Assembly: GCA_017991375.1 (NCBI GenBank)
Contig: JAGOQP010000003.1
Span: 17,525 to 81,524, forward strand
DNA: 64,000 nucleotides
Origin: Minisyncoccota bacterium
Lineage (GTDB): Bacteria > Patescibacteriota > Minisyncoccia > UBA6257 > JAGOQP01
Direction: 5' to 3'
Made by a program: the position numbers and the translations under genes. The notes beneath the pieces are model-generated. The model searched no databases and was not told the origin of the DNA. It saw only the letters and a program-made list of their open reading frames with translations. Shown here piece after piece: positions 26,103 through 63,617 of the stretch (position 1 is the first letter of the stretch; every line of letters begins with the position of its first letter).

Positions 26103-26140
26103 TTGACCCCTTTTTTCACGATCGTGAAAAAAGGGGTCAA
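26103..26140. repeat. 38-bp perfect palindrome, copy 1 of 3
   Basis: TTGACCCCTTTTTTCACGATCGTGAAAAAAGGGGTCAA; identical copies at 28205 and 63580. Confidence 0.95.
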
Positions 26141-26305
26141 ATGGGGTAGTTACATTGTGGTTTATCATGGTTATAATTCACCACAGTCATGGTCTATCAC
26201 AGTGGTGGGTCATCAGAAAGCGAGTAATTAAATAAAGAGGGTGGCTAAGAAAGCGTCGTTGTTATTTTTATTTAATGAGCTACGCGCGTTTTTTGTGTTA
26301 ACTAT

Positions 26306-27103
26306 ATGCGCTTGTCCCCACATAGTATACGAGTGTTTCAAAAAACCGTTTTGCGGTATTTTGATAAACACAAACGAGATTTTCCATGGCGTCGTGGCGT
26401 AACACCATACAAAACACTTGTGTCGGAGATAATGCTTCAGCAAACACAAGCAGATCGTGTGGCAAAATACTTTCCCCGTTTTATAAAACAATTTCCGACC
26501 ATCCAAGCGCTTGCTCAAGCTTCTATCACGCGTGTTCTTCGGGCGTGGCAAGGACTTGGATATAATCGTCGGGCGTTATTTTTGCATCGATGCGCGCAAC
26601 ACATAGTCCGCCAACACAAAGGGGCAATTCCTAACACTATAAGTGAGCTCGACGCGCTCCCAGGAGTGGGATACGCGACCGCGTGTTCCATAGTGGCGTT
26701 TGCCTACAATAAACCGACTGTTTTTATAGAAACCAATATACGAAGCGTGTATATTCATCACTTTTTCAAAAATAAAAAGAATATTTCCGATGCGACGCTT
26801 ATATCTCTGGTCAAACAAACACTCTATTCAAAAAACCCTCGGCGGTGGTATTCGGCGCTCATGGATTATGGAACGATTCTTAAAAAAAGAGAGGCAAACC
26901 CTTCTCGCCAAAGTGCTCACTATATAAAACAAAAACCATTTAAAGGATCAACGCGCCAAATTCGCGGACGTATTGTAAAAGAACTTTTAAAAAGAAAGGA
27001 TGCCAAAGATATTGTGCGACTTCTCAAAAATGTCGGATTTGGTGAAGCAGCAATAAAAAAATCCCTCTCGACTCTCAAAAAGGAGGGATTTACGGGCCTG
27101 TAA
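26306..27103 (+). CDS. HhH-GPD DNA glycosylase (MutY/Nth family) lacking the Fe-S Cys cluster
   Basis: FPWR, VSEIMLQQTQ, LGYNRRA, LPGVGYATA are HhH-GPD signatures. There is no C-x6-C-x2-C-x5-C cluster. Confidence 0.75.
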   Translation: MRLSPHSIRVFQKTVLRYFDKHKRDFPWRRGVTPYKTLVSEIMLQQTQADRVAKYFPRFIKQFPTIQALAQASITRVLRAWQGLGYNRRALFLHRCAQHIVRQHKGAIPNTISELDALPGVGYATACSIVAFAYNKPTVFIETNIRSVYIHHFFKNKKNISDATLISLVKQTLYSKNPRRWYSALMDYGTILKKREANPSRQSAHYIKQKPFKGSTRQIRGRIVKELLKRKDAKDIVRLLKNVGFGEAAIKKSLSTLKKEGFTGL

Positions 27104-27157
27104 AACTCTTTCTCCTTTCTTGTGGCAGGGCGCGTCAAGATGGTATAGTGTGAATAT

Positions 27158-28150
27158 ATGGAAAAATATCTCGTTGACGTGTTTACTGGTGTGCGGCCGT
27201 CTCACACACTCACGATTGCAAATTACATCGGTGCGATAAAGCCGATTATTGATTTACAAAAAAAAGGCGCGCGCCCAGTAGTGTTTGTCGCGGATCTTCA
27301 CGCGCTTACTGATAACGAACCAAAACAGATTGGACAGTATATACAGGAAATAGCCGCTGATTACATCGCGCTCGGACTGGATCCCGAAAAAACGAGCATT
27401 TTTACCCAGTCGGCAATCAGAGAGGAAGTGCTTACGTTAACGGCGTATCTGGCGCGATTAATATCTGTTGCCGAACTACTGCGCGTGCCAACACTCAAAG
27501 ATAAACTAAAATCAGGAGCGCGCCCCGAGACAGCTAACGCGTTGTTGTTTCTGTATCCGGTACTTATGGCGGCTGATATTTTAATTCAGCGTGCTCAGCG
27601 TGTTCCTGTGGGCGAGGACCAATTGGCGCATCTTGAAGTGTCGCGAGAACTTGCTCGACGCTTTAACCAAAAGTATAAAACAGTATTCCCATTGCCTCAG
27701 CCGTATGTCACCAAAGCATTGCGTATTATGTCGTTGGACGGTAAGGGGAAAATGAGTAAAAGCAATCCCGATGGCGCGTTTTTACTCACCGACACCCCCG
27801 CTCACATTCGCGCGAAAATAAAAAAGGCGGCAACGGCAACTGAAGGAAACATAACAGACGTTCTAAAAAGTCACTGCTCCATTATTGAGCACATCGGAAC
27901 AGAAAAAGAAAACGAACTTATGGGCGCCATCATCAAAAAGCATAAAAAAGGAGAAAAGGTTATGGGGGAGTTTAAGACATTGCTTGGAGATTGCGTAGAA
28001 CGTTTTTTGGTGGGATTTCAAGAAAAACGTGCTCAAGTATTGGGAAATAAAAATTTCGTCCCGCTGGTTTTAGAAAAAGGAAATGGTTTTGCGCGTGAAA
28101 ACGCGTCGCGCACGTTGGAGTTGGTAGAAAAAGCGATGAAAGAAAGATAA
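27158..28150 (+). CDS. trpS: tryptophanyl-tRNA synthetase
   Basis: GVRPSHTLTIANYIGA (HIGH-like), KMSKS; about 330 aa, class Ic. Confidence 0.85.
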   Translation: MEKYLVDVFTGVRPSHTLTIANYIGAIKPIIDLQKKGARPVVFVADLHALTDNEPKQIGQYIQEIAADYIALGLDPEKTSIFTQSAIREEVLTLTAYLARLISVAELLRVPTLKDKLKSGARPETANALLFLYPVLMAADILIQRAQRVPVGEDQLAHLEVSRELARRFNQKYKTVFPLPQPYVTKALRIMSLDGKGKMSKSNPDGAFLLTDTPAHIRAKIKKAATATEGNITDVLKSHCSIIEHIGTEKENELMGAIIKKHKKGEKVMGEFKTLLGDCVERFLVGFQEKRAQVLGNKNFVPLVLEKGNGFARENASRTLELVEKAMKER

Positions 28151-28204
28151 TACATGATGCGAATATACTAATAGCGCGAATCCGCCACTACCTATTATAG
28201 TAGA

Positions 28205-28242
28205 TTGACCCCTTTTTTCACGATCGTGAAAAAAGGGGTCAA
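28205..28242. repeat. 38-bp perfect palindrome, copy 2 of 3
   Basis: Identical to 26103-26140. Confidence 0.95.
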
Positions 28243-28267
28243 TCCATGGCGAACGAATGACTACGAA

Positions 28268-28293
28268 TGGGAAGGAATCATTAATCTTTCATC
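28268..28293. repeat. left inverted repeat of the pair bounding the 28.27-29.76 kb segment
   Basis: GGAATCATTAATCTTTCATCCTTAAT. Its reverse complement matches 29728-29760 across a 20-nt identical core TTAATCTTTCATCCTTAAT. Confidence 0.6.
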
Positions 28294-28498
28294 CTTAATT
28301 ATTGACCGCACAGTGCTTATCCTTAATCATTAATCGCACACTGTCGACCCATAACTCGTTCCACATTTATCATTCACGTTTCACTAAAAAGGCTATCCTT
28401 GACGGAAAGCTTTTTTTGTAGTACGTTTGTTTTTAGCATTCTGACAATGTGTCCCGAGTCAACAAACAAACCAGCCAGAGAAAGAGGGGAGAAACGCT

Positions 28499-28927
28499 AT
28501 GTCTCATTACCCAATTTCTGACTGTACCAAGTGTGACGTAGCGACTTGTATTCACAGGAGAGCTGCGTACGTAGAAAAAACAACGCAGAGATTTTCGGTT
28601 TCTCATCATCAGAGAAAACCAGTATGCGGTAGGATTTCTTTGCCACAAGTAGGTATTGAGAGCGATTGCAGAGCTGAGGTTTTCAATATGACAAAAGAGG
28701 CGCTCCGACGCATTTCTTTTCACGTCCGAGCTTCGCGTGCTCGCGAGATTTTTGTTCTTGTGTTGTTAGAGGAAATTCGTTCAACCATTGTTGGTCGTTA
28801 CCACGAGAACAGCGCGATGGGAATGATCGGCGATGAAGTGATGACGTTGTTACAGGATCTTGTGGCTCACGAAAGCTCGCAAGCTTCACCGCCATCCGCT
28901 CAAAAGAGCGACACTTCTTCTAGGTGA
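28499..28927 (+). CDS. hypothetical protein
   Basis: RBS GAGGGG 8 nt upstream; 142 aa; no recognisable family. Confidence 0.45.
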   Translation: MSHYPISDCTKCDVATCIHRRAAYVEKTTQRFSVSHHQRKPVCGRISLPQVGIESDCRAEVFNMTKEALRRISFHVRASRAREIFVLVLLEEIRSTIVGRYHENSAMGMIGDEVMTLLQDLVAHESSQASPPSAQKSDTSSR

Positions 28928-28956
28928 GCGCCTTCTAAGGAATTTCAGAGGGGGCT

Positions 28957-28992
28957 TGACAAATCTTTTGTAGTGTGCTAAGATGTATCTCG
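28957..28992 (+). promoter_or_regulatory. sigma70-type promoter driving the GC-rich locus
   Basis: TTGACA, a 17-nt spacer, then TAAGAT. Confidence 0.5.
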
Positions 28993-28994
28993 TA

Positions 28995-29697
28995 CACTAC
29001 AACGGAGGGAAGATGCACAGGCGCCCAAGAGACAACCCGTACTAGCTACTCAGGACAAGCCGCTCTGGCACGGTATTCGCTCACTCCACGGTTTGGGGGA
29101 GCGAAGCGGAAAGGGCATAGGTACTCCATCTGGGGGATGCTCTTTCGTGCCGTGCCGCCACTGCGCTACAGTGTCATCGTCGACGCTGTAGCACGGCCGC
29201 CCCATGCGGCGGCAGAGAGGAGGGCACTGTAGTGCCCATCGTCGAGGTCCGAGGTGGACCTTAGCCCGCTAAGATAGCACGATCGCCCCAAGAGGATTTT
29301 ATTAAAGTAGACCTCTTGGAGAAGGAAAGAACCAAAGGATCAGCATGTCAAAGGCGGGCGAGGGCAAAGCCCATGCGTCCCCTCCCTTCTCTACCTAAGA
29401 AGAAACGGCATGACTCACTACGAGTCGTCTGCCGTCTCTTAGGTCAAACCCTGCGGGAAGAATGCTGGCTTGCCAGGAATCTTCTCGCGACAAGCGCGAA
29501 CCTCGAAACGAAAAAGGTTCTCGGTGCCCCGTGTGTGACACGGGCGCACCGAGACCACAACCACGAGGAGCTCAACAAGAGCTTTAGTCGCCGATACAGC
29601 GAGCGCGTAGCACACTCTCGACACTTGCGGTCCGGTGGAATGATTGAAGCCGGAACCGTAGCCCTGCACCACCTGGTGTGGGGCGTTTTTTTATGCG
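28995..29697 (+). ncRNA. candidate large structured non-coding RNA (about 700 nt; identity unknown)
   Basis: GC content is far above the surroundings. It contains many near-perfect GC-rich hairpins, for example GCCGCC..GGCGGC, GGGCACTGTAGTGCCC, CCAAGAGG..CCTCTTGG and GGTGCCCCGTGTGTGACACGGGCGCACC. No ORF exceeds 130 aa, and the translations are Arg-rich nonsense. It ends in the terminator CCACCTGGTGTGGGGCG followed by TTTTTTT. Confidence 0.4.
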
Positions 29698-29727
29698 ATT
29701 AACGACGAATGTGGAAAAAGCAATTGG

Positions 29728-29760
29728 CTACAATTAATGATTAAGGATGAAAGATTAACG
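29728..29760. repeat. right inverted repeat of the pair bounding the 28.27-29.76 kb segment
   Basis: CAATTAATGATTAAGGATGAAAGATTAACGATCC, whose reverse complement is GGATCGTTAATCTTTCATCCTTAATCATTAATTG. Confidence 0.6.
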
Positions 29761-29818
29761 ATCCCCCCTGTTTTTTTAGGTTAAGGATTAATAGTCAACG
29801 ATAAACTATTTCTCTCCG

Positions 29819-30547
29819 CTATTCCCTCACCAATATCATCAGTACGATACCCGCAATAAAAATGAAAAAGTTTAATATAGATTTTCCCAAATGTTTTTCT
29901 TTTCGTATTTCTGGCATCAAATCTGAAGCGGCAATATAAATAAATCCTCCCGCGGCAAATGGCAATAAGTAGGGAAGTATATGTTCAAGAGGTGTGCGCA
30001 CTAGATATCCCGCTATACCTCCCAATACTACAAAGAGCGATACGGTGTAATTGGCAATAAGCGCTTTAAGGCGATTAAACCCCGCGTGAAGCAACACGCC
30101 AAAATCTCCAATTTCTTGAGGAATCTCATGCAACGCAATGGCGATTGTTGTGGCTATTCCGAGAGGAATGTCGACCAGAAATGAGCTTGCGATCACAAGG
30201 CCGTCTATAAAATTATGAAGTGAATCGCCAAATAAATTCATGTGGCCGAGCGTGTGTACTTCACATATTCCTTTGTGACAGTGCCGCCAGTGGAGAATTT
30301 TTTCCATTAAAAAGAAAAAAACAAAAGCTCCCAAGGTGATGATAAAAAGCATTTCGGGGTGAATTTTTTCCGCTGCCTCGGGGAGTAAATGTATAAAAGC
30401 GCCGCCAATAAGCGCTCCAGCTGAAAACGAAACAAGATAAATAGTGATAGCGGGAAGCGACTCCTCCTTTTTTACATACAAAAAAGCAACGGCGATAAAT
30501 ATACACAGCGTTATCGAAAACGTCGCTAGTAAAATAAATAGAAGCAT
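29819..30547 (-). CDS. zupT: ZIP family metal (zinc) transporter
   Basis: HNFIDGL and HEIPQEIGDFGVL motifs; multi-TM. Confidence 0.8.
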   Translation of the reverse strand: MLLFILLATFSITLCIFIAVAFLYVKKEESLPAITIYLVSFSAGALIGGAFIHLLPEAAEKIHPEMLFIITLGAFVFFFLMEKILHWRHCHKGICEVHTLGHMNLFGDSLHNFIDGLVIASSFLVDIPLGIATTIAIALHEIPQEIGDFGVLLHAGFNRLKALIANYTVSLFVVLGGIAGYLVRTPLEHILPYLLPFAAGGFIYIAASDLMPEIRKEKHLGKSILNFFIFIAGIVLMILVRE

Positions 30548-30575
30548 ACGCTATACCACTTGCCGCTTTTTTGCG

Positions 30576-30845
30576 CTACATTCCCAAAAATTCAAGTAGT
30601 TTATAAACCACAAACGCCGGCCATACCGCGGCCTTCAACACTCCGAGCACCCCGACCCAAAACGTATCCGCGTGCTGGATAAAATATACAGCCGCTCCAA
30701 TAAAGCCGATACCATAAAGTCCACACGAGGCCCCTGCTCGGTGGCTCTTTTTTGATCCGCACCATTTTTTAAAGCACGAGCAACATTCGTTGCATTGCTG
30801 AGTGCATGCACACTGTTCTTTTTCCATATAGGAGACATTATACAC
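30576..30845 (-). CDS. Cys-rich small membrane protein
   Basis: N-terminal CACTQQCNECCSCFKKWC followed by two TM helices. The start is ambiguous: GTG at 30845 or ATG at 30827. Confidence 0.45.
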   Translation of the reverse strand: MYNVSYMEKEQCACTQQCNECCSCFKKWCGSKKSHRAGASCGLYGIGFIGAAVYFIQHADTFWVGVLGVLKAAVWPAFVVYKLLEFLGM

Positions 30846-30867
30846 CCAAAACGTTGATGGTCAAAAA

Positions 30868-31758
30868 TTATGACAGAGATTTTCTTTTTATCCACTCAAT
30901 AAGAAAGAATACGCCGGTTATAACTGCCGGGCCCGCAATTAATACATACCAACTCCAATGACGATGAAGTCCCACCATCCATACGTAATAGAGCGCAAAA
31001 CCAAAAAACGCAATTGCGCCTACTAGAGGCTTTTTCCACGCAAATATAGTTGCGACAAGAACAACCAAAGGGATGATAAGATGGATAAGGCCGCCAAGAA
31101 TCATATTCCACCCGAGCGGTCCAGAAAACCCATCAAACGAGAATAAAAGCAAAAATCCGACAAACAATAGGGCTAGTATTCGTGGTGTCCAATAAAGTAA
31201 CGAATTATGCATAGTAGTGTGTGTAAGATGTGTGTGATGAGTATTGTCCCATTGAATGATTCGTTTGTTAAGTAGGGGAGAAAAATGATTTTTGTATCGT
31301 TTTTGGACTTCGGGTAATTTCCAATCTTCTCCAGTAATTTGTTTTCTGCACATAGGGGAATCGCACTGGCATTTCCATGACGATCGGTAGTCGCCATCAT
31401 CTTCCCAAAGAGCATAATCAGAAGTAATTTCCTCGCCGCTTGCGATAGCGCGCTTTGCGACGAGAGTGTATGTATCACTCATCCAGGTATTTGCGTCGCA
31501 GGAATGGTTGATAAAATAGCCTCGATCGACACCCCGATCTTCAACACTAAATACATCATCATCCCATTGTATTGCCAGTTTTCCACCAACCGTTTTTGCC
31601 TTTAGGGCTTCTTCTTTGTTGACGTAGTTTCCTCCCCACACAATTACTTTTTCTCCTGGGGCAATATTTTCAACAGCAAAAAGCCCCTTGCCGTATTTCT
31701 TGGTTTCTCGTAGTTCTATTTTTGGGCTTATCCAATCTTCTTGCGAGGGAGTAGTCAT
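30868..31758 (-). CDS. SET-domain protein fused to a C-terminal multi-TM domain
   Basis: N-terminal GKGLFAVENIAPGE...RGYFINHSCDANTW...EEITSDY plus post-SET CQCDSPMC; the C-terminal half has 4-5 hydrophobic helices. Confidence 0.7.
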   Translation of the reverse strand: MTTPSQEDWISPKIELRETKKYGKGLFAVENIAPGEKVIVWGGNYVNKEEALKAKTVGGKLAIQWDDDVFSVEDRGVDRGYFINHSCDANTWMSDTYTLVAKRAIASGEEITSDYALWEDDGDYRSSWKCQCDSPMCRKQITGEDWKLPEVQKRYKNHFSPLLNKRIIQWDNTHHTHLTHTTMHNSLLYWTPRILALLFVGFLLLFSFDGFSGPLGWNMILGGLIHLIIPLVVLVATIFAWKKPLVGAIAFFGFALYYVWMVGLHRHWSWYVLIAGPAVITGVFFLIEWIKRKSLS

Positions 31759-31817
31759 GGCGGTTTTGTGATGTGCTTTGATTGTTTCTAATTAAAAATT
31801 CTTTTTAAAATACGCAC

Positions 31818-32756: not shown

Positions 32757-32759
32757 ATA

Positions 32760-33266: not shown

Positions 33267-33613
33267 ATTTTTATATTAATTCTATCTATTCTACTAGTTT
33301 TTTGTGTTATTGGCGAATAAATAAGCTTCTATATACAGAAAATGAGTTACAATCACAAAATGTGATTCTTGGCGGTGACGATGCTCCGAAATTCGAATCA
33401 AAAAGGCGGCTCAAATTCAGGATTCTTGATAAAAGTATACAGGGATTACGAGCTATCTACAAAGTTCATCCAGAATGGTTTGGAATACCTAAACCGAAGT
33501 CTGATGGGGGTAAAAACGAGGTGGATTATTCTATATAAAATTTCCCCGATCCAGTGTACACACATCCCGCCCGCGAAGGGCAGAAGGGATCGCGGGCGGG
33601 GCTCCCTAGAGAT

Positions 33614-42184: not shown

Positions 42185-42226
42185 TAAAAACATTCCAACA
42201 TTCTTAAGAATGTTGGAATGTTTTTT
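42185..42226 (+). terminator. rho-independent terminator
   Basis: Perfect hairpin CATTCCAACATTCTT-AAGAATGTTGGAATG followed by TTTTTT. Confidence 0.8.
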
Positions 42227-46971: not shown

Positions 46972-47135
46972 ATCGCCAGTATCATCCTTGGCGCCCGTTC
47001 CCACGAGCGCCTTTTGTTTTTACTCTTGATTATCCGCCCTTTCTCCGCTACAGTTTGGAATGGTTATTATTGGTTTTTCACTTGGTGTTTTAGATTTTTT
47101 CTATCAGCTATAAGCCATAAGCTCTTAGCCAAATC

Positions 47136-47463
47136 GGCCTCATCGTCTAACGGTTAGGACAGTGCCCTTTTCCACCATCGGTGGATCGCCCATAGGGGGA
47201 CACGGCATACGCGTCAATATGTTCTATGTATATGTGTTAAAATCACTTGGACATAGCCGACATTATATCGGCATAACTAATAACGGAAAGAAAAGATTGC
47301 AAAAACATAACAGCGGATCGGTTCGTTCCACAAAAGCATATAGACCATGGGCTATAGCTTGGATAGAAGAATACAATAACAAAACAGATGCTCGCAGGAG
47401 AGAATTACTACTGAAAAATAATTACACGTTAAGAAAAGAGTTATTCGAAAAAATAGAAAAATC
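47136..47463 (+). repeat. tandem unit 1: tRNA-Glu 5'-half copy (35 nt) plus GIY-YIG ORF
   Basis: 328-bp unit, near-identical to 47464-47791 (1-2 mismatches). Confidence 0.9.
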
Positions 47464-47485
47464 GACCTCATCGTCTAACGGTTAG
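47219..47485 (+). CDS. GIY-YIG nuclease family small protein (copy 1)
   Basis: MFYVYVLKSLGHSRHYIGITNNGKKRLQKHN...; about 89 aa. The last roughly 11 codons and the stop are encoded by the following tRNA-Glu 5'-half copy. Confidence 0.7.
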   Translation: MFYVYVLKSLGHSRHYIGITNNGKKRLQKHNSGSVRSTKAYRPWAIAWIEEYNNKTDARRRELLLKNNYTLRKELFEKIEKSTSSSNG

Positions 47486-47791
47486 GACAGTGCCCTTTTC
47501 CACCATCGGTGGATCGCCCATAGGGGGACACGGCATACGCGTCAATATGTTCTATGTATATGTGTTAAAATCACTTGGACATAGCCGACATTATATCGGC
47601 ATAACTAATAACGGAAAGAAAAGATTGCAAAAACATAACAGCGGATCGGTTCGTTCCACAAAAGCATATAGACCATGGGCTATAGCTTGGATAGAAGAAT
47701 ACAATAACAAAACAGATGCTCGCAGGAGAGAATTACTACTGAAAAATAATTACACGTTAAGAAAAGAGTTATTCGAAAAAATAGAAAAATC
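47464..47791 (+). repeat. tandem unit 2: tRNA-Glu 5'-half copy plus GIY-YIG ORF
   Basis: See unit 1. Confidence 0.9.
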
Positions 47792-47813
47792 GGCCTCATC
47801 GTCTAACGGTTAG
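47547..47813 (+). CDS. GIY-YIG nuclease family small protein (copy 2)
   Basis: Identical to copy 1 except one residue near the C-terminus. Its C-terminus is encoded by the 5' half of the intact tRNA-Glu gene. Confidence 0.7.
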   Translation: MFYVYVLKSLGHSRHYIGITNNGKKRLQKHNSGSVRSTKAYRPWAIAWIEEYNNKTDARRRELLLKNNYTLRKELFEKIEKSASSSNG

Positions 47814-47866
47814 GACAGTGCCCTTTCACGGCATAAATTCGGGTTCGATTCCCGATGAGGTCACCA
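47792..47866 (+). tRNA. tRNA-Glu (anticodon TTC) with encoded CCA
   Basis: Acceptor GGCCTCA/TGAGGTC, D-arm GTCT..GGAC, anticodon loop CTTTCAC, T-loop TTCGATT, then ACCA. Confidence 0.8.
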
Positions 47867-47900: not shown

Positions 47901-48237
47901 TGATACTAAGCGAAATCGAACTATAAGCCCCCGTGGCGCCTGCCTGCTGTAGGCAGGGAAGATATGGAAGAATATTTGACATAGAAAAGCAACCAGGTTT
48001 ATAATATTAATCATGTTCAAGGCAATATTGAGCATCTAAGGCCGGAGTCGGGGATCCTCAAGATTATAAGAGTAAATTTCTGAGATCTGTGGTCACTCAA
48101 AAGATGCTTATAAATCACAGTTCTAAAAATAGTTGCCGGAGTCGGAACCCCTCATAAAAAACATCTTGATAATTAAGGTGTTTTTTGTTTTTGATGTGGA
48201 TAATGGAGGAATATTATTGTACACTGAACATATTCTC

Positions 48238-48891
48238 ATGTGGTATTTATACTTGGATGAAAGCGGTGATTTAGGTTTTGATTTTGTTAATAAAAAACCA
48301 ACAAAATTCTTCACCGTAACTATTCTAGCTGTTAGCTCTCGAGATGCTAACAGAAAGTTATTTAATGCTGCGAAAAAAACATTAAATCAAAAACTCAATA
48401 ACAAAAAACATAGGAAAAGAATCATTTCTGAGCTTAAAGGAACTGGAACCACAATAATAATCAAAAAATATTTTTTTGAAAAAGTTAAGAACACAAAATT
48501 TGGCCTCTATTCTATCACTTTGAACAAAAAACGAGTGTATGCAACTCTGGCAGAAAATAAATCAAGAGTTTATAACTATATTTCAAGACAGGTTTTAGAC
48601 CGCATACCTTTTGAAAAATATGACTCTGATAGAGTAGAGCTAATCATAGATAAGTCTATGGCAAAACCAGAAATCTCAGAGTTTAATTCTTATATTAGGC
48701 GCCAACTAGAAGGAAGAATCTCCCCAAACACGCCGTTGGATATATATCACCGCTTGTCTCATGAAAATTTTGGATTGCAAATTGTCGATTTGTTTTGCTG
48801 GGGCATTTTTGAAAAGTACGAAAAACCAAAAAACGATGATTGGTTTAACATTTTTAAAGAAAAAGTACTGCTTGACGAGCAGTACCTATAA
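48238..48891 (+). CDS. DUF3800-family protein
   Basis: N-terminal MWYLYLDESGDLGFDF matches the DUF3800 YxDESG signature. The locus is very AT-rich and Lys/Asn-rich and looks foreign. Confidence 0.6.
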   Translation: MWYLYLDESGDLGFDFVNKKPTKFFTVTILAVSSRDANRKLFNAAKKTLNQKLNNKKHRKRIISELKGTGTTIIIKKYFFEKVKNTKFGLYSITLNKKRVYATLAENKSRVYNYISRQVLDRIPFEKYDSDRVELIIDKSMAKPEISEFNSYIRRQLEGRISPNTPLDIYHRLSHENFGLQIVDLFCWGIFEKYEKPKNDDWFNIFKEKVLLDEQYL

Positions 48892-55096: not shown

Positions 55097-55126
55097 TAGT
55101 CCTCTTGGTTTATACTAAACCCACTC
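55097..55126 (+). promoter_or_regulatory. sigma70-type promoter upstream of rpoB, with a roughly 230-nt leader
   Basis: TTGACA, a 17-nt spacer, then TTATACT. Confidence 0.5.
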
Positions 55127-55357: not shown

Positions 55358-58300
55358 ATGCATACGCTACCAATTAAGTCGTTTTCAAAACACCCGGGCG
55401 ATTTTATTGAAAAGCCATACTTTGGAGAAATCCAATTGAATTCGTGGCAGTGGTTTTTGAAAAAAGGTATCAAAGAATTATTTAAAGAAATTTCTCCCAT
55501 TCGCGACTACACCTCAAAGGAGTACGAGCTTTATTTTGAGGACTACTCGTTTGATGAACCAAAATTTACCGAGGAAGAATCATGGCAGCGAAGTTCAACA
55601 TACGAAGCAGCGCTTCGCGCGCATGTGCGATTAGTTAATTTAAAGACAAAAAAAGAAACGGAGCAGGAGGTTTACTTGGGTGACTACCCCATGATGACTG
55701 ATCGAGGAACGTTTATTATAAATGGAGTTGAGCGTGTGGTGGTATCTCAATTTATCAGATCGGCGGGGGTATACTTTACCGCAAAATCGGTTCGTGGTCG
55801 CAGATACTTTGGCGCAAAAATTATTCCCGATCGTGGGAGTTGGATGGAATTTGAAGTTGAACTCGATGGGAGTATTGGCGTTAAAATAGACAAACATCGC
55901 AAAGTTCCAGTATCCGATTTACTGCGCGTGTTTGGCTTGGAAACAAACGATACCATCACCTCCACGTTTTCTAGCGATGATGTCGGCGAAACAAAATTCA
56001 TTGCCGCGACACTTAAGCGTGACGTGGCACATGATATTGATGGGTCATATATAGAAATCTACAAACGGTTGCGCCCGGGAGATTTAGTAAGTGCCGAAAA
56101 CGCAAAGAGTTTGATTGATGGCATGTTCAAACGCCTAGATCGTTTTTCTATGTCGCAGGTGGGGCGTTTTAAGTTGAATCAGCGATTGGGCGTGGATCAA
56201 AAAATTGATACGCAACTTATTCGGTTGGAGGATTTGGTGCTTATTGTAAAGGAGCTTATTCGTTTGAATAACGATGAAAACGCTCAACCGGATGATTTTG
56301 ACGATCTTTCTAATCGGCGCGTGCGTTCGGTTGGCGAATTATTGCAGGGGAGAATGCGCGTAGGATTTGCGCGTATGCGCAGAATCATCCAAGACCGCAT
56401 GTCTACTTCCGAAGCGGCGCTCATTACCCCAATGCAGTTAATCAATCCGCGTCCGTTGGCGATGGTGGTGAGAGAATTCGTGATGTCATCACAATTGTCG
56501 CAATTTATGGATCAGGTAAACCCATTGGCTGAGTTGGAGCACAAGCGATTGCTTTCGGCTCTTGGTCCTGGGGGACTTTCTCGCGAACGAGCTGGCTTTG
56601 AAGTGCGCGATGTTCATGCCTCACACTACGGACGCATTTGTCCTATTCAAACTCCAGAAGGTCAAAACATCGGTCTTATTAACCACCTTTCTAACTTCGC
56701 GCGCGTCAACGATATGGGCTTTTTAGAAACGCCGTATGTGCGCGTAAAAAATGGAAAAGTAACTGGTGAGATAGTGTGGATGGATGCGCTTGAGGAACGC
56801 AAACACAACATCGCGCAGGGGAGTGTACGATTGGATGCGTCAAAACATCTTGTTGAGGATATTATTGAAGCTCGCATAAATGGAGAGCCGGGCGTGTGTC
56901 CACGCGATGAAGTTGAGTATATGGATGTTTCATCGTTGCAAGTGGTATCGGCCGCAACCAGTTGTATTTCGTTTTTGGAACATGACGATGCCACGCGCGC
57001 GCTGATGGGATCAAATATGCAACGTCAAGCGGTGCCAGCAGTTCGACCACAGATGCCACTAGTGGGGACGGGAGCTGAGGAACGTATCGCTCTCGACTCG
57101 GGGCGTGTAGTGCTCTCAAAAGAAGACGGAGAAGTTACGTCTGTTGATGCCTCTCATATTGTGGTGCGTGGGAAAAACGGCTCTATTGAGTACGTTTTAC
57201 ATAAGTTTCGTCGATCAAACAGCTATACGGGAATAAGTCAGCGTCCAATCGTAGTCCCCGGTCAAAAAGTCAAAAGAGGCCAGCCGATCGCCGACGGCCC
57301 CGCGACAGATCACGGGACGCTCGCGCTGGGACAAAATCTTCTTATTGCGTTTATTCCATTTTTTGGCGGTAATTTTGAAGACGCGGTAGTTATTTCAGAG
57401 CGTGTTGCACAACAAGATCGGTTTACGTCGGTGGCGATTGAAGATTATATTTGTGATGTTCGTGACACAAAACTTGGTCCGGAGGTAACCACATCCGACA
57501 TCCCAAACGTTTCGGAAGAAAAATTGCGCAATTTGGATGAAGAGGGAATTATCCGTGTTGGCGCCGAGGTGCGTGCGGGAGATATTTTGGTGGGGAAAAT
57601 TTCTCCAAAAGGTGAAACAGAGCTCACCGCTGAAGAAAAATTATTGCGATCTATCTTTGGTGAAAAAGCGCGTGACGTGAAAGATACTTCGCTCTATTTA
57701 CCGCACGGGAAAATCGGTCGCGTTATTGGAATAAAAATATTCTCTCGAGAACATGGAGACAAATTGGAACCGGGAGTTATTAAAAGAATTCAAGTAGAAG
57801 TTGCTCACTTGCGAAAAATACGCGCGGGAGACAAGCTTGCTGGACGTCATGGAAACAAAGGTGTTATTTCACAGGTGCGTCCTGTTGAAGATATGCCGTA
57901 TCTTGCTGATGGAACGCCGGTTGATGTGGTTCTCAATCCCGTAGGCGTACCGTCTCGCATGAACTTAGGACAAGTGCTCGAAGTCCATTTGGGACTTGCC
58001 GCTAAGAAATTAGGATATCGTGTGGTGACACCGGTGTTTGCGAGCGCGACCGAAGAAGAAATCGCGCATGAACTTAAAAAAGCGGGGTGTCCTGAAAATG
58101 GACGACTGGAATTATTTGATGGCCACACCGGAAAGAAATTCGATCAGCCGGTGACGGTGGGGTATATGTACATTATGAAACTCAATCACTTGGTTGAGGA
58201 TAAGATTCACATGCGTTCAATTGGGCCGTACTCACTAGTAACTCAACAACCGCTGGGAGGGAAAGCGCAATTTGGCGGTCAGCGTTTTGGAGAAATGGAA

Positions 58301-58531
58301 GTATGGGCGCTCGAAGGATATGGCGCGGCTCATACACTGCAGGAAATGCTGACGATCAAATCGGATGACGTGCTTGGACGCGCGGCGGCGTTTGAATCAA
58401 TTGTAAAAGGAGATGACATTCGCGTGTCGACATCTCCCTCGGCGTTTAGTGTGCTCACTAACGAAATTAACGCGCTTGGTATTAAGATTGATCCGGTGCG
58501 CAAAGAAGACGTTGGGGACAAGGACTACTAA
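55358..58531 (+). CDS. rpoB: DNA-directed RNA polymerase subunit beta
   Basis: Conserved RpoB blocks (GDYPMMTDRGTFIINGVERVVVSQ, NMQRQAVP, GRHGNKGV); 1057 aa. Confidence 0.95.
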   Translation: MHTLPIKSFSKHPGDFIEKPYFGEIQLNSWQWFLKKGIKELFKEISPIRDYTSKEYELYFEDYSFDEPKFTEEESWQRSSTYEAALRAHVRLVNLKTKKETEQEVYLGDYPMMTDRGTFIINGVERVVVSQFIRSAGVYFTAKSVRGRRYFGAKIIPDRGSWMEFEVELDGSIGVKIDKHRKVPVSDLLRVFGLETNDTITSTFSSDDVGETKFIAATLKRDVAHDIDGSYIEIYKRLRPGDLVSAENAKSLIDGMFKRLDRFSMSQVGRFKLNQRLGVDQKIDTQLIRLEDLVLIVKELIRLNNDENAQPDDFDDLSNRRVRSVGELLQGRMRVGFARMRRIIQDRMSTSEAALITPMQLINPRPLAMVVREFVMSSQLSQFMDQVNPLAELEHKRLLSALGPGGLSRERAGFEVRDVHASHYGRICPIQTPEGQNIGLINHLSNFARVNDMGFLETPYVRVKNGKVTGEIVWMDALEERKHNIAQGSVRLDASKHLVEDIIEARINGEPGVCPRDEVEYMDVSSLQVVSAATSCISFLEHDDATRALMGSNMQRQAVPAVRPQMPLVGTGAEERIALDSGRVVLSKEDGEVTSVDASHIVVRGKNGSIEYVLHKFRRSNSYTGISQRPIVVPGQKVKRGQPIADGPATDHGTLALGQNLLIAFIPFFGGNFEDAVVISERVAQQDRFTSVAIEDYICDVRDTKLGPEVTTSDIPNVSEEKLRNLDEEGIIRVGAEVRAGDILVGKISPKGETELTAEEKLLRSIFGEKARDVKDTSLYLPHGKIGRVIGIKIFSREHGDKLEPGVIKRIQVEVAHLRKIRAGDKLAGRHGNKGVISQVRPVEDMPYLADGTPVDVVLNPVGVPSRMNLGQVLEVHLGLAAKKLGYRVVTPVFASATEEEIAHELKKAGCPENGRLELFDGHTGKKFDQPVTVGYMYIMKLNHLVEDKIHMRSIGPYSLVTQQPLGGKAQFGGQRFGEMEVWALEGYGAAHTLQEMLTIKSDDVLGRAAAFESIVKGDDIRVSTSPSAFSVLTNEINALGIKIDPVRKEDVGDKDY

Positions 58532-58563
58532 ACATAAAAACGTAACTACTATCTATCTATTTT

Positions 58564-61500
58564 ATGGCTCTTATAGATTTTGACTATCTTCGTCTTAAAA
58601 TTCCTTCGCCCGATGAAGTGCTTTCGTCGTCATACGGTGAGATAACCAAACCAGAGACAATTAACTATCGCACACAACGTCCAGAAAAAGACGGACTTTT
58701 TTCAGAACGCATATTCGGTCCGACAAAAGATTACAAATGTTACTGCGGTAAATTTAAAGGATTGCGATATAAAGGAACGGTATGTGATAAGTGTGGTGTT
58801 GAAGTTACACGCGCCATTGTGCGCCGCGAACGCATGGGGCACATTAAGCTTGCTGCCCCCGTGGCACATATCTGGTTTCTTAAGACCGGATCGTCAAAAA
58901 TCGGTTTGTTTTTTGATGCCCCTGTGTCAAAACTTGAAAAAGTTGTTTACTATGCGTCGTACATCGTTACCAACGTGCACGAAGAAGCACGCAAGGAATC
59001 GTTAGCCAATCTTCAGAGTGAATATAAATCACGTCACGGAGATATTTCCGATAAAGCCCAACGCGAAACGTTCGACGCGACATTCGCACGCTCAAAAGAA
59101 TTTTTGACGTCGGTTAAAATGGGGACGGTTATATCGGAAAATGATTATTTTGAACTTGCGAAAAAATTTGGCGCCGTATTTGAGGCGGGAACTGGAGCGG
59201 AAGCGCTCTATCGGATTTTGGAGAAAGTGAATCTCAAAAAAGAAATCACTGCCGTGCAACAACAGCTTGATGTGCTCAGCAAAAAGAAGGATGTAGTTTC
59301 TGAGAAAAAACTTTTAACAAAATTGCGCGTACTGCATGCGTTTGTGCGCAATAATATGCGTCCCGAATGGATGATTATGACAGTATTGCCCGTTATTCCG
59401 CCTGACTTGCGACCAATGGTTCCGCTTGATGGAGGGCGTTACGCCAGTTCTGACCTTAACGATCTATATCGTCGGGTTATTAATCGTAATAATCGTTTGC
59501 AAAAATTAGTTGAACTCAAAGCTCCAGAAATTATTGTTACTAACGAAAAGCGCATGCTTCAAGAGGCAGTTGACGCGCTCATTGATAATGCCGCTCGCTT
59601 TGGACGTCAACAGATGTCCGCGCAGAATCGTCCGCTTAAGTCTTTGGCTGATATTCTCAAGGGAAAGCAGGGACGATTTAGACAAAACTTACTAGGAAAA
59701 CGCGTCGACTACTCAGGGCGTTCGGTTATCGTTGTTGGTCCCGAAATGCGCCTTAACGAGTGCGGTATTCCAAAAAAGATGGCACTGGAATTGTTTAGAC
59801 CGTTTGTGATCAATCAAATTTTGGAACGCGGACTCGCGCACAATATAAAAAATGCAAATCGTTTAATCGAGCAGGGTATTCCGGAGGTATGGGAGATTGT
59901 CGAAGAAGTCACTCAAAACAAATTGGTGCTTCTTAACCGCGCGCCAACGCTACACCGATTGGGTATTCAAGCGTTCAAGCCGATTCTTATTGAAGATTTA
60001 GCAATTCGCATTCCGCCGATGGTGTGTAGCGCGTTTAACGCGGACTTTGATGGAGACCAAATGGCCGTGCATCTGCCACTCTCTGCGCAAGCGCAACAAG
60101 AGGCAAATGATCGCATGATTTCTTCAAAGAACATCATCAAACCAGCCAATGGAGATCCAATTGCCGCTCCATCGCAAGATATTGTGCTTGGGTGTTACTA
60201 CTTGACGCGTATTATCGATGAAAAAAATGATTCAAAAGACGTAAAAATATTTTCGTCTCCAGAAGAAGCCCTCATGGCAATGGAACTCGGGGCGGTAAGA
60301 ATAAACGAACCGATTCGTGTTGGTTCCTCAAAAGCAGAAGTAATCAGTTGTGGTCGTTTGATTTTCAATCGTATCGTTCCAAAAGAGCTGGGCTTTGTGA
60401 ATACGACTATGGACAAGAAGAGCTTAAAAGCGCTCGTGGGGCGTTACATTGACACCTTTGGATTTGAATCAGCGTGGGAATTTCTTGATGCGGTTAAGCG
60501 TATTGGGTTTGAGTATGGCGCGCTCTCTGGTATTACCTGGAGTACGTTTGATATGAAGGTGCCGGAAGAAAAAGATGTTATTGTCGCGCAGGCACGTACA
60601 CAGGTCAAAAAGATTCTTGAACAATACGAAGGAGGATTATTAGACGAAGGAGAACGCAAAGCGCATATTTTGCAGATTTGGGAGGGAGCGAAAAAACAAC
60701 TCGCGGAACTGGTCAAAAAGGCGCTTCCTCAAAAAAGTCCTATTTTTAGCATGATTGATTCTGGCGCGAAAGGAACGTGGGCACAGGCGACACAAATGAT
60801 GGGAATGAAAGGGCTAGTGAATAATCCGAAAGGAGAAACAATTGAATTGCCTGTGGTCTCATCGTATAAAGAGGGATTATCAGTGCTTGAATTCTTTATT
60901 AACACGCATGGCGCGCGCAAAGGATCAACGGACACGGCACTCAAAACGGCGCAGGCGGGATATTTAACTCGTCGTATGGTTGATGTGTGTCAGGATATTG
61001 TTATCAATAACGATGACTGTGGAACGTCTGAGGGTGTCACGATTGATCGTGCCTCAGGTGATGCGTATGGCTTTTCGTTCGCAACGAGACTTTTTGGACG
61101 AACGGCTGCTGGGGACATAAAAGAAGGTAACAAAATCCTTGTTCGTGAGGGAGACATTATTGATCGCGCCTCAGCTGACGCAATAAAAAACTCATCTATC
61201 GCGTCAGTCGTGGTTCGCTCTCCTATTACCTGTAAATCACTCTATGGCGTGTGCTCACATTGTTACGGGTTGGATCTGGGGCGTCTATCTCTTGCCAAGC
61301 AAGGAGAAGCTGTTGGTATTATCGCTGCACAGTCCATTGGTGAGCCAGGAACACAGCTTACTCTGCGTACTTTCCACGCCGGAGGGGTTGCGGAAAAAGA
61401 CATTACATCAGGACTCCCTCGTATTGAAGAGGTCTTTGAGGCCCGTCCTCCAAAGGGAAGAGCGGCTTTGGCAAAAGGAGATGGTATGGTTGAAGATATT

Positions 61501-62196
61501 GAGGATCATGGATCTCAAAAAATCATCAAGATCAAAACCCATGCGTCGCGCGCCAAAGGAAAATCAAAAACAAAACCAAAAGAAAAAGTCATTGAATACA
61601 TCGCTCCTAAAAATGTCATGCTCTTTGTTTCAATCGGCGACACCGTAAAACAAGGGGATCAACTCTTTGAAGGAAGCATTGATCTTAAGGAGTTATTCGC
61701 GCTCAAAGGAAGAGAAGAAACAGAAAAATATATCATCAATGAAGTGCAACGCATCTACGTTACCAACGGAAATACCATAAACGACAAACATATTGAGTTG
61801 ATTGTGAAGCAAATGTTCTCTCGCGTAGTGGTAAAGGAAACGGGAGAGAGTGATTTTGTGGTGGGACAGGTTGTTGAAAAATCGCGCTTCTTGGAAGTAA
61901 ATCGCGCGCTTAAACGAAAGGGAAAAACACTGGCGAAAGCGCGGCAACTTCTGTTGGGAATTACACGCGCGGCACTGAGCACAGGAAGTTTCCTCTCAGC
62001 CGCTTCATTCCAAGAAACGGCTCGTGTCCTGGTGAACGCGGCATCAGAAGGACGCGTGGATCGTTTGCGCGGACTTAAGGAAAACGTTATCATAGGGCGC
62101 TTGATTCCAGCGGGCACTGGATATGGACGAGTAGACGATGTCGCGCAGGGCGAAAAAACCGATTCGGACGGAGACGCTCTAACCGAAACGGCGTAA
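58564..62196 (+). CDS. rpoC: DNA-directed RNA polymerase subunit beta'
   Basis: Zn-binding [28 protein letters not shown] catalytic loop, trigger loop and bridge helix blocks; 1210 aa. Confidence 0.95.
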
Positions 62197-62271
62197 AAAT
62201 GATTAAATCAGCAGTTACTTGCGTTTCTGCTTGGTATGTGATACCGTAACCACACATTGTAAATTACGAAA

Positions 62272-62721
62272 ATGAGTATCATGTCTGAAGTTGAAAAGAA
62301 AGAATACGAAATAGCTTTGCTTGTACGCGCCGAAGGCGATGTTCAACACGCAAAAGCGTTGCTTGAAAAACATGGCGTCGTGACTACTTTTGAGAGCCCG
62401 CTCAAGCAAATACAGTTGGCTTACCCAATCGCAAAGGAAAAGGCGGCAGTGTTTTGTTTCTGGTATGGAATGGCCGACCCCGCGGTTATCAACAAGTTAA
62501 CTAACGAATTACGTCATGAATCATGGTGCGTGCGTTCACTTATTGTAACCGATCCGGTTAAACACACCCATCACGAAGCGCGACGATCAGAACGCGATGG
62601 CGAATACATCGAAAAGTCACAAGAACCAAAAGAACAAATGGCACCAATACAGAATAAAAAAACAGCAGACACAGTCACTAACGAAGATTTAGAAAAAAAG
62701 CTGGAAGAAATTCTTGGGTAG
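62272..62721 (+). CDS. rpsF: 30S ribosomal protein S6
   Basis: KKEYEIALLV...FESPLKQIQLAYPIAKEKAAVFCFWY is the S6 fold pattern; rpsF-ssb-rpsR operon context. Confidence 0.75.
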   Translation: MSIMSEVEKKEYEIALLVRAEGDVQHAKALLEKHGVVTTFESPLKQIQLAYPIAKEKAAVFCFWYGMADPAVINKLTNELRHESWCVRSLIVTDPVKHTHHEARRSERDGEYIEKSQEPKEQMAPIQNKKTADTVTNEDLEKKLEEILG

Positions 62722-62760
62722 TCGTTATGTGCGTATATATTACTATTTAGTAGCACTTAT

Positions 62761-63240
62761 ATGAATCTCAACAAAGTATTTCTCATCGGTCGGGTGACTA
62801 CCGATATTGTGCTCAAAGCGACTCCATCAAACCAGGCGGTTACTAATTTTTCTGTTGCAACCAACAGGGTATGGACCGATAAAAGCGGCGTAAAGCAAGA
62901 GGATGCCCAGTTTCACAGCGTTGTGGTGTGGGGAAGACAAGCAGAGCTCGCGAGTCAATTCTTAAGCAAGGGAAGTTTGGTGATGATTGAGGGACGGCTC
63001 CAGACGCGAACGTGGAAAGATAATAGCAATCAAACACACCGAGTGACTGAGGTGGTATGCGAAGGGATCCAGTTTGGACCACGGAGCGCGAACGCAGGAG
63101 CATCCTCGGGGGCGCCGCGTCCAGCGGAGAAAAAAGCAGAGACGCAACCGGCAACTAACGAATTTGAGGATTCACTAGAAGAGAATCTCCCACAAATATC
63201 AATGGATGAAGAGATTAAAGCAGAAGATTTACCGTTTTAA
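62761..63240 (+). CDS. ssb: single-stranded DNA-binding protein
   Basis: OB fold MNLNKVFLIGRVTTD...SVVVWGRQAE...IEGRLQTRTW and an acidic C-terminal tail ending DLPF. Confidence 0.9.
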   Translation: MNLNKVFLIGRVTTDIVLKATPSNQAVTNFSVATNRVWTDKSGVKQEDAQFHSVVVWGRQAELASQFLSKGSLVMIEGRLQTRTWKDNSNQTHRVTEVVCEGIQFGPRSANAGASSGAPRPAEKKAETQPATNEFEDSLEENLPQISMDEEIKAEDLPF

Positions 63241-63243
63241 CCT

Positions 63244-63471
63244 ATGGCAATACAACGAGTTTCAAAAAGACCGCGACAGTGTTTTTTCTGCTCGCAGAAT
63301 ATACAAGAGGTTGATTATAAAGATATCGCGCTTCTTAAACGTTTTATATCGGCACAGGGTAAAATTGTCGATCCTCAACATACAACCACATGCGCCAAGC
63401 ACCAGCGTAGATTGGCTCAAGCGATAAAGCGCGCGCGCTTTATGTCTCTTCTTTCGTATGTGAAAAAATAA
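63244..63471 (+). CDS. rpsR: 30S ribosomal protein S18
   Basis: KRPRQCFFC...[17 protein letters not shown] matches the S18 signature. Confidence 0.85.
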
Positions 63472-63478
63472 ATTTAAA

Positions 63479-63516
63479 CCCCCTCGTGAAAAAAGTTCAC
63501 GAGGGGGTTTTTGTTT
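63479..63516 (+). terminator. rho-independent terminator after rpsR
   Basis: CCCCCTCGTGAA-AAAAG-TTCACGAGGGGG followed by TTTTTGTTT. Confidence 0.85.
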
Positions 63517-63579
63517 GATAGGTAAGTATGTACAAAAAGGTTGACGAAGGATAAAAAAACGGCGGGATTTTTGACCCCT

Positions 63580-63617
63580 TTTTTCACGATCGTGAAAAAA
63601 GGGGTCAAAGGGGAGCT
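63580..63617. repeat. 38-bp perfect palindrome, copy 3 of 3
   Basis: Identical to 26103-26140. Confidence 0.95.

Follow-up and report, generated by a model that had tools for sequence, protein, structure and literature searches.

Results

A perfect 38-bp palindrome recurs in intergenic spacers

The genomes of Patescibacteria, also referred to as candidate phyla radiation (CPR) bacteria, are tiny, and mobile DNA is considered scarce in them. We analyzed a stretch of 64,000 nucleotides (hereafter, the window; positions 17,525 to 81,524 of contig JAGOQP010000003.1) from a Minisyncoccota bacterium of this group, whose tryptophanyl-tRNA synthetase (TrpRS) is only 55-60% identical to that of any GTDB species representative. 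The window contains, among others, a DUF378 gene, a DNA glycosylase (HhH-GPD) gene followed by trpS, and an rpsF-ssb-rpsR operon followed by a PAP2 gene. The spacers behind the DUF378 gene, trpS, and rpsR each carry the same 38-bp palindrome, TTGACCCCTTTTTTCACGATCGTGAAAAAAGGGGTCAA. An exact search of the window located the copies at 26103-26140 (copy 1), 28205-28242 (copy 2), and 63571-63608 (copy 3), none of them assigned to a strand. Three identical copies had also been claimed in a preceding inspection of the letters (the sequence-only reading), and this claim was borne out. The start given there for copy 3 (63580, end 63617) lay, however, 9 nt too far to the right. Allowing up to three mismatches revealed no further match to the 38-mer in the window and none in 100 shuffles.

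TTGACCCCTTTTTTCACGATCGTGAAAAAAGGGGTCAA is a perfect palindrome over its full length, consisting of 19 + 19 bp with zero spacer. The sequence-only reading had described the 38-bp palindrome as 14-bp arms around a palindromic 10-nt centre. At all three sites in the window, complementarity runs on past the 38-mer into unrelated flanks. T/A flanks extend copies 1 and 3 to 40 bp (26102-26141, with 20-bp arms, and 63570-63609, respectively), and GA/TC flanks extend copy 2 to 42 bp (28203-28244). Identity among the copies ends at the palindrome boundary, as judged from an alignment of their 300-nt neighbourhoods.

For sequence beyond the window, we used contig JAHZTK010000519.1 (90.9 kb) of the metagenome-assembled genome (MAG) GCA_020047475.1, which contains the window and includes the locus L237. 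Here, approximately 6 kb upstream of the window, a fourth, variant copy, TCGACCCCTTTTTTCACGATCGTGAAAAAAGGGGTCGA, is located at L237 2020-2057. Its position 2 and the mirror position 37 are both changed (TTG/CAA to TCG/CGA), which leaves the palindrome perfect; with its CC/GG flanks it reaches 42 bp. No further copy was detected in the remaining 9 kb of the contig downstream of the window, and neither the window nor L237 contained credible isolated half-sites with up to three mismatches besides the copies themselves. Four copies, three of them identical and all extragenic, are thus present in ~82 kb of one contig. In at least five samples, the Logan contigs of this species break inside the palindrome at each site. 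Because they end inside the copies, we conclude that the copies are real and shared, and that they break assemblies made with k = 31.

The copies lie between the end of one gene and the start of the next

All copies occupy spacers between tandem plus-strand genes. Copy 1 is located 159 nt after the DUF378 stop codon and 165-192 nt before the HhH-GPD-trpS start. Copy 2 lies 54 nt after the trpS stop codon and 256 nt before the start of an orphan open reading frame (ORF) of 142 aa, and copy 3 lies 99 nt after the rpsR stop codon and 69-86 nt before the PAP2 start. Copy 4 is found 23 nt after a pilin-like gene and ~100 nt before the gene for pyruvate, phosphate dikinase (PPDK). The position behind gene 3' ends, emphasized in the sequence-only reading, was thereby confirmed; it is only half the picture, each copy being equally upstream of the next plus-strand gene.

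Copies 1 and 3 are preceded by canonical intrinsic terminators. That of the DUF378 gene (25949..25998, plus strand), ~100 nt upstream of copy 1, has a 14-bp stem (25949-25991) followed by U8 (-19.5 kcal/mol, z = -4.2) and is also present in the related strain L222 and in the sister-species locus L218 (see below). That of rpsF-ssb-rpsR (63476..63515, plus strand), 60 nt upstream of copy 3, is of the bidirectional type, with a 15-bp stem and a 5-nt loop (63476-63510) and a T-run. The sequence-only reading had correctly noted the latter and did not mention the former. As read from the sequence, a 12-mer, TCGTGAAAAAAG, is common to the rpsR terminator and the right half of the 38-mer; this may reflect chance or a remnant of common origin.

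On the downstream side, a predicted promoter-like site, GTTACA-17-TATAAT (26149..26177, plus strand; 10/12 consensus match), begins 9 nt after copy 1, and a TTGTGC-18-TATACT site, read from the sequence, lies 50 nt after copy 3, before a probably leaderless PAP2 start. With terminators upstream and promoter-like sites downstream, at least copies 1 and 3 reside in terminator-to-promoter spacers. The palindrome itself was discarded as a promoter, because TTGACC as a -35 element gives GAAAAA at -10, and no consistent -10 element occurs across the family members described below.

Termination or RNA processing was among the candidate functions in the sequence-only reading. According to this explanation, the palindrome forms a hairpin on transcripts and acts at operon ends as a terminator without a U-tract, as a barrier to 3'-exonucleases, or as an RNase III site. 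The predicted RNA fold of the 38-mer is indeed very stable (-30.5 kcal/mol, z = -7.8; -19.1 kcal/mol as DNA), and every copy follows a plus-strand gene end. Copies 2 and 4 are the first and sole hairpins after the stop codons of trpS and the pilin-like gene, which is not the case for copies 1 and 3 at their sites. However, copies 1 and 3 stand behind canonical terminators and should therefore be little transcribed. At none of the four copies is the stem followed by a U-run (AUGGGG, UCCAUG, AGGGGA, and GGCAGC), in line with the sequence-only reading, and the terminator scan did not call the palindrome, though it called the true terminator 60 nt upstream of copy 3. We therefore rejected an intrinsic terminator. 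An RNA hairpin of any other kind also appears improbable, since the element is dispensable in the sister species and the family shows features that such a hairpin leaves unexplained (both described below).

The palindrome is variable in presence and constant in sequence

Strain L222 (DRR438493), with 92-97% nucleotide identity to the window, has copy 2 and lacks copy 1. The spacer segment carrying copy 1 (25997..26335, no strand) comprises 340 bp here versus 65 bp in L222, as derived from BLAST break points and alignments, and the predicted promoter behind copy 1 falls within it. A k-mer comparison revealed no homologue in L222 of the 300-bp segment around copy 1. One alignment sets the 38-mer exactly between TATTT and ATGG of L222; we do not claim an empty site, as other alignments are equally good. 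Nor do copies 1 and 2 bound a composite element, because L222 has the same genes with only copy 2. Copy 3 is present in the DRR4384xx strain contigs.

In the sister species (L218 and L226; TrpRS 87% identical, ~74% nucleotide identity), the gene order is the same and all three window sites are empty. The corresponding spacers are short, with 76 bp at site 1 and 79 bp at site 3, and neither the 38-mer nor any other long CGATCG palindrome was detected in ~30 kb. Behind trpS, copy 2 belongs to a species-specific segment (28151..28954, no strand), together with an inverted repeat built from heptamers and the 142-aa orphan ORF. This segment is absent from L218, where trpS is directly followed by a homologue of the window from 28955 onward. 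The next relative, L240, is also devoid of a copy at site 3.

Where strains share a copy, no difference was observed in the 26-28 nt of palindrome held at each of the three sites (~81 nt in total), versus 22 differences in ~232 columns (~9%) of the adjoining spacers. For copy 2 in L222, two single-nucleotide polymorphisms in the 54-nt spacer before the palindrome compare with none in the 26 nt held (2/54). For copy 3 in the DRR4384xx strain, the 62-column preceding spacer contains eight differences and the 27 nt of palindrome none (8/62). The third strain comparison was derived from the contig heads L238 and L239 (12/116). At the spacer rate, zero changes in ~81 nt have a probability of ~3e-4. 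From the presence/absence pattern and the lack of changes next to diverged spacers, we conclude that the unit was gained within the species-level lineage, that it is not fixed, and that it is constrained or homogenized.

These results bear on the possibility that the palindrome is a non-mobile host site, which a lineage-specific homodimer would bind as an operator or as an architectural or nucleoid site, with selection for binding keeping the copies identical. A perfect dyad that is identical between strains while its flanks diverge is what one would expect of such a site, and copies occur just upstream of promoters or promoter-like sites. On the other hand, the sister species and one strain lack it at the orthologous genes, the downstream genes (DNA glycosylase-trpS, the orphan ORF, PAP2, and PPDK) have no common theme, and no regulator gene is adjacent. 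Moreover, one regulator's sites normally resemble each other without being identical over 38 bp, and selection on half-sites does not predict the symmetric double change in copy 4. The arms also differ wholly between lineages, as shown in the following, yet length, centre, and ends are fixed. We consider a purely host-functional site, the chief rival of the reading favoured in the Discussion, unlikely.

Other Patescibacteria carry differently spelled palindromes of the same architecture

The sequence-only reading had proposed a search of related genomes for the same palindrome or for genes of the repetitive extragenic palindromic (REP)-associated tyrosine transposases (RAYTs). The exact arms of this lineage gave no match in the genome, metagenome, and viral contig collections, which omit the source MAG, and the plasmid and phage collections contained no match to the palindrome. 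Five other Patescibacteria lineages (L019, L085, L160, L173, and L190), however, possess 38-bp perfect palindromes of the form TTG-N12-ACGATCGT-N12-CAA, i.e., of the same architecture and with different spelling. Two of them emerged from a palindrome scan of 80 Patescibacteria trpS loci (0.89 Mb) conducted without any sequence constraint. This unbiased scan yielded two more species with perfect palindromes centred on CGATCG, both exactly 38 bp long with TTG/CAA ends: TTGCTATTATAACTCACGATCGTGAGTTATAATAGCAA in L019 and TTGGTATAATAAATAACGATCGTTATTTATTATACCAA, in two copies, in L085 (a Zambryskibacteria MAG). The other three were obtained by scanning metagenomes for the pattern TTG-N11-CACGATCGTG-N11-CAA, which gave at least 121 matches. 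Among the matches listed, the number of mismatched pairs at the 11 free positions was bimodal, with four matches showing none and the others 3-11 (mode 9). One of the four, L104, on a contig of 64% GC, was dropped as an artefact because its palindromy continues to the contig end (fold-back, 6000-6089). L160, L173, and L190, on contigs of 43-46% GC, are genuine perfect members of the family. The same pattern had eight matches in viral contigs, none of which was palindromic. Rfam returned nothing at the palindromes even at E <= 1, and the searchable literature held no prior description of the core sequence or of CPR palindromic repeats.

Across seven variants, positions T1, G3, A16-T23, C36, and A38 are invariant. 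The arms have a lineage-specific spelling and are always Watson-Crick symmetric, without wobble pairs: all 119 pair cells are Watson-Crick, and 13 of the 17 pairs change on both sides, a count to which the selection of variants contributed (see Discussion), while none changes on one side only. This covariation was reached in 0/500 shuffles, and slid controls likewise remained far below it. As ends and centre are invariant at fixed spacing and the arms vary while staying exact complements, it appears that a two-fold-symmetric object is recognized. The lack of wobble pairs and bulges, together with the fact that the 'loop' GATC is itself self-complementary, points to symmetry at the level of DNA or of both strands. 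The same features argue against the RNA hairpin considered above, which would moreover leave the invariant TTG/CAA ends and the ACGATCGT centre across distant lineages unexplained.

In L085, the unit opens a repeat of ~150 bp, at the end of which stands a second perfect palindrome, of 32 bp. The second palindrome is also found alone, resulting in a mosaic that resembles bacterial interspersed mosaic elements (BIMEs). It overlaps a TATACT box, 57 nt downstream of the family palindrome, an arrangement that would suit the host binding site discussed above. L173 contains, 87 nt upstream of its perfect palindrome, a decayed copy that has ATTTTGGACAT and the centre in common with it. The L019 palindrome lies between the 3' ends of a GIY-YIG-domain gene (11-691) and a XerC/D-like gene (808-1836); neighbours of either type were seen at L019 only and not at the other copies.

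The 15+8+15 layout, with 15-bp arms around ACGATCGT as an 8-bp crossover region, resembles loxP or FRT and raises the question of a lox- or dif-like core site for a site-specific recombinase. The L019 palindrome is situated 14 bp past the stop codon of the XerC/D-like gene, the L173 site looks like a hybrid sharing one arm and the centre, and two copies in the window bracket HhH-GPD-trpS. However, neither the window nor the downstream locus L004 contains a recombinase gene, and no Xer homologue occurs in L085, L160, L173, or L190. Thus, the Xer/dif link suggested by L019 was dropped. Known systems conserve the arms and leave the spacer free, which is the reverse of the pattern observed here, and a symmetric spacer gives no directionality. 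In addition, the gene order between the copies is unchanged in the strain lacking copy 1, and several copies within 40 kb would invite deletions. A recombinase core site is therefore hardly to be expected.

Palindromy extends beyond the unit

In 8 of the 10 copies known from the six lineages, palindromy extends into unique flanks (binomial P ~0.002 at 0.3 per copy). The Patescibacteria loci are, moreover, rich in zero-spacer perfect palindromes of 28-44 bp, with ~25 in 0.89 Mb versus ~0.003 expected, and CPR phyla have the highest inverted-repeat densities reported (PMC13155455). The elements might therefore be mutational by-products, namely quasi-palindromes perfected and extended by template switching in repair-poor genomes, without function or mobility. 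The symmetric double change in copy 4 is in line with such a process. It cannot, however, give rise to four copies of one 38-mer at unrelated loci, nor to a length, ends, and a centre shared by six distant lineages, nor to conservation between strains. As a full explanation we regard it as very unlikely. The abundance of zero-spacer palindromes and the published inverted-repeat density nevertheless favour template switching as a background process, one that cannot account for the repeated unit itself. Flank-extended palindromy and the double change point to one of two processes: the unit may insert into short palindromic targets (TA, GATC, CCGG, CATG, and TTTTAAAA) at their dyad, or intrastrand template switching may continually perfect and lengthen the dyad.

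Other zero-spacer perfect palindromes, in unrelated Patescibacteria, share a common 8-bp centre among themselves, namely GCTATAGC in three species (L049 3824, L032 6570, and L089 1897) and TTTGCAAA in two (L038 3825 and L085 3841/5020/10294). This hints at further families built on the principle of the ACGATCGT family.

Other features of the window

The window has three other long perfect palindromes, at 597-635, 10799-10835, and 42186-42225, with arms of 17-20 bp and spacers of 0-5 (zero in the last case). All three are flanked by A-runs and T-runs in the manner of bidirectional terminators.

Downstream of copy 2, a GC-rich candidate non-coding RNA of ~700 nt (28955-29692, plus strand) has a strong TTGACA-17-TAAGAT promoter and an end resembling a terminator. 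The sister species has a conserved homologue (L218 7028-7690, ~69% nucleotide identity) directly behind trpS, and Rfam gave no match to the candidate even at E <= 1. The candidate RNA and the 142-aa orphan ORF are bracketed by 30-nt inverted repeats (28274-28303 and 29736-29765) made of tandem heptamers (ATCNTTA). Heptamer repeats of this type also occur at 13004, 13828, 44392, and 50700, and the same heptamers and other period-7 arrays were detected by Tandem Repeats Finder in many spacers (4588, 9710, 18139, 20945, 50696, and 51134; L004 18557).

The 23S rRNA gene (region 4264-8829) spans 3387 nt versus 2925 nt in the model, indicating insertions. A tRNA-Ala(GGC)-like sequence was found inside it at 5689-5763 by both ARAGORN and Rfam, and the interval from the 23S to the 5S gene carries a LAGLIDADG endonuclease ORF (7792-8262). 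A tandem duplication with a 328-bp unit (47131-47866; 2.1 copies, 99% identical) is composed of the 5' part of a tRNA-Glu gene and a 107-aa GIY-YIG nuclease ORF, and an intact tRNA-Glu ends the array. A DUF3800-V RNA (Rfam RF02964; 48902-48997, minus strand) adjoins a DUF3800 protein gene (48133-48891, plus strand), which is the expected pairing.

Further differences between relatives were observed away from the palindromes. A 2.3-kb segment between tRNA-Arg(GCG) and tRNA-Arg(CCG) (18352-20680) is absent from the ~95%-identical L222; it contains two ORFs, one of which matches a phage phosphohydrolase family (PHROG 19425). L222 has an extra gene of 244 aa at window position 23220-23254. Downstream of the window (L004 11500-18600), ~7 kb, including the gene of a 1204-aa DUF2341/LVIVD protein, separate PAP2 from parA, and in the sister species parAB directly follows PAP2.

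Discussion

We favour the reading that the 38-mer is a REP-like palindrome that propagates within the genome and is served in trans by a putative enzyme, and assign it a probability of roughly 0.45. According to this model, new copies would be made from an existing copy and would settle downstream of a terminator and ahead of the next promoter, in spacers with little or no transcription. Copying from an existing copy would explain both the identity within the genome and the differences in occupied sites between close relatives. The unit would be read as a two-fold-symmetric object, either as duplex DNA or as an extruded or single-stranded hairpin. Reading would presumably fall to a dimeric protein whose gene lies elsewhere in the genome and which touches the centre and the ends, both invariant, and the arms would represent the lineage-specific part required to stay self-complementary. 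Identical copies at unrelated loci, lineage-specific spelling, presence/absence, and the L085 mosaic argue for a REP-type element rather than the operators of a regulator. By analogy with the REPs of Escherichia coli, which are both, REP-like propagation and dimer binding need not exclude each other. A binding site for a dimeric protein, another candidate of the sequence-only reading, is probably part of the answer.

Several observations weigh against REP-like propagation. In ~90 kb of the source contig, no transposase, RAYT, integrase, reverse transcriptase, or Tas gene was found, and for the orphan ORFs near the copies, neither Pfam nor PHROG nor NCBIfam pointed to a DNA enzyme. The copies lack target-site duplications, and only four of them were seen, within ~82 kb of one contig. 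There is no clean pair of filled and empty sites: copy 1 lies within a 340-bp replacement instead of representing a clean 38-bp indel, and the sister-species spacers are too diverged to align. A binding site serving the host alone could likewise account for the conservation between strains. Finally, three of the seven variants were picked for being perfect, which inflates the covariation count. The same point on covariation holds without these variants, because L019 and L085 from the unbiased scan and the fourth copy show it.

A more far-reaching model, which we judge to be a long shot, is a self-templating palindromic mobile DNA or a programmable hairpin-reading enzyme system, in which the arms would serve as the address for a new hairpin-specific nuclease or recombinase. 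In the self-templating case, the heritable unit would be a single-stranded half, composed of TTG, a 12-nt 'address', and the self-complementary ACGATCGT. Such a half would pair with itself or with a second copy via the centre, and fill-in by a polymerase would automatically regenerate a perfect 38-bp dyad wherever a new copy arises. This would account for why the length is fixed, why centre and ends are invariant, why wobble pairs and mismatches are entirely absent, why the double change is symmetric, and why no target is duplicated. If true, it would imply an enzyme system in CPR bacteria that is not yet known.

Should the partner turn out to be an enzyme specific for hairpins or dyads whose specificity segment can be swapped, it would be of interest for the biology of mobile elements and for tool development. 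If the palindrome is only a host binding site, it represents a modest addition to the bacterial intergenic repeats. A defined and searchable family (38 bp, invariant centre and ends, lineage-specific and perfectly symmetric arms) provides a handle on why the inverted-repeat density of CPR genomes is high. Its members can be counted across genomes and used as strain markers, they break short-read assemblies at predictable points, and they lend themselves to phylogenetic profiling aimed at the protein that reads them.

Comparison with known systems

Some known systems resemble the palindrome in single traits. A unit of clustered regularly interspaced short palindromic repeats (CRISPR) was rejected, as was a LexA box, because LexA of Patescibacteria recognizes a direct repeat (PMC7739468). 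The tandem interspaced guide RNA (TIGR) units, known from the same host phylum, superficially share the layout, in which a conserved middle is flanked on either side by 9-12 variable nt and a conserved edge, within 36-38 nt. TIGR units, however, form tandem arrays beside a Tas gene and have box C/D motifs and non-complementary spacers, and TIGR targets consist of 9+9 contiguous bases on opposite strands with a gap of <=2 bp (PMC12045711). Tandem Repeats Finder detected no TIGR-like array in the window or L004, no ORF there has a Nop domain, and the variable arms of the palindrome are 8-10 bp apart. A TIGR unit or Tas target was therefore rejected.

The perfect dyad is also reminiscent of parS, the binding site of ParB. 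In this lineage, the centre, TTTCAC-GATC-GTGAAA, contains both parS half-sites split by 4 bp, parAB is encoded in the region, and no match to TGTTTCACGTGAAACA with up to two mismatches occurs in the window, L004, or L226, so that the palindrome could be envisaged as a non-canonical parS. However, the resemblance holds for this lineage only, other family members having ACTCAC or AATAAC in the same place. Unlike the 16-bp parS dyad TGTTNCACGTGAAACA, the palindrome has 38 bp with four extra bp (GATC) at the dyad, an insertion that would turn the half-sites to different faces of the helix. The sister species, whose ParB has a near-identical helix-turn-helix (72% identity overall), has no 38-mer in ~30 kb including parAB. 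Mainly on the basis of this comparison, and even though no canonical site lies near parAB, a parS function was rejected as next to negligible.

The cyanobacterial HIP1 (GCGATCGC) shares the palindromic CGATCG/GATC core, and its function is likewise not known. It is, however, a hyper-abundant 8-mer that also occurs inside genes, whereas the ACGATCGT core is embedded in a fixed 38-bp unit and CGATCG is infrequent, with 98 sites in the ~1 Mb of loci examined. The ends of IS200/IS605 insertion sequences (ISs), integron attC sites, and rolling-circle origins likewise combine variable paired stems with an invariant foot and tip, the pattern expected when a protein reads a folded strand. These hairpins of single-strand enzymes carry mismatches or extrahelical bases that mark the strand and lie adjacent to or within an element encoding the enzyme, neither of which was seen for the 38-mer.

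With MITEs (miniature inverted-repeat transposable elements) such as Correia/NEMIS, RPE, and MITEAba12, the palindrome shares a non-coding, dispersed, intergenic, and strain-polymorphic nature and the construction from inverted repeats. MITEs are 50-500 bp long, with terminal inverted repeats around an internal segment, target-site duplications, and ends that match an autonomous IS. In the 38-mer, the two 'ends' abut, no duplication is present, and no separate half-site occurs in the window. The flanks are not direct repeats and rather tend to mutual complementarity, and no autonomous partner is in view. We therefore rejected a MITE with target duplication.

The closest likeness is to REPs and BIMEs. 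Like these, the palindromes are short (~20-40 nt), extragenic, near-identical within a genome, and species-specific in sequence; they are often located after gene ends, form mosaics (as in L085), differ from strain to strain, and show more conservation than expected under neutrality. REPs are asymmetric, and only one of their strands is read; they have a conserved GTAG immediately 5' of the palindrome, and their stems are either bulged (group 2) or short and perfect with a real, non-palindromic loop of 3-4 nt (group 3) (PMC8266576). The 38-bp family is, in contrast, fully two-fold symmetric with conserved TTG/CAA ends and a self-complementary centre, and the flanks of 10 copies from six lineages contain neither GTAG nor any other shared asymmetric motif. 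A REP in the strict sense is thus ruled out by the missing GTAG, asymmetry, and bulge or non-palindromic loop, and no RAYT gene was found in ~90 kb. Of the candidates in the sequence-only reading, the REP-like element or miniature mobile palindrome is the one best supported by the behaviour of the repeat (dispersed, identical, variable between relatives, and part of a wider family), even though it fails the formal tests for REPs and MITEs. In the best explanation, Patescibacteria harbour a family of dispersed DNA palindromes with perfect symmetry that had not been described before, and the 38-mer is the version belonging to one lineage; this family is best filed as a new member of the small extragenic palindromic repeats.

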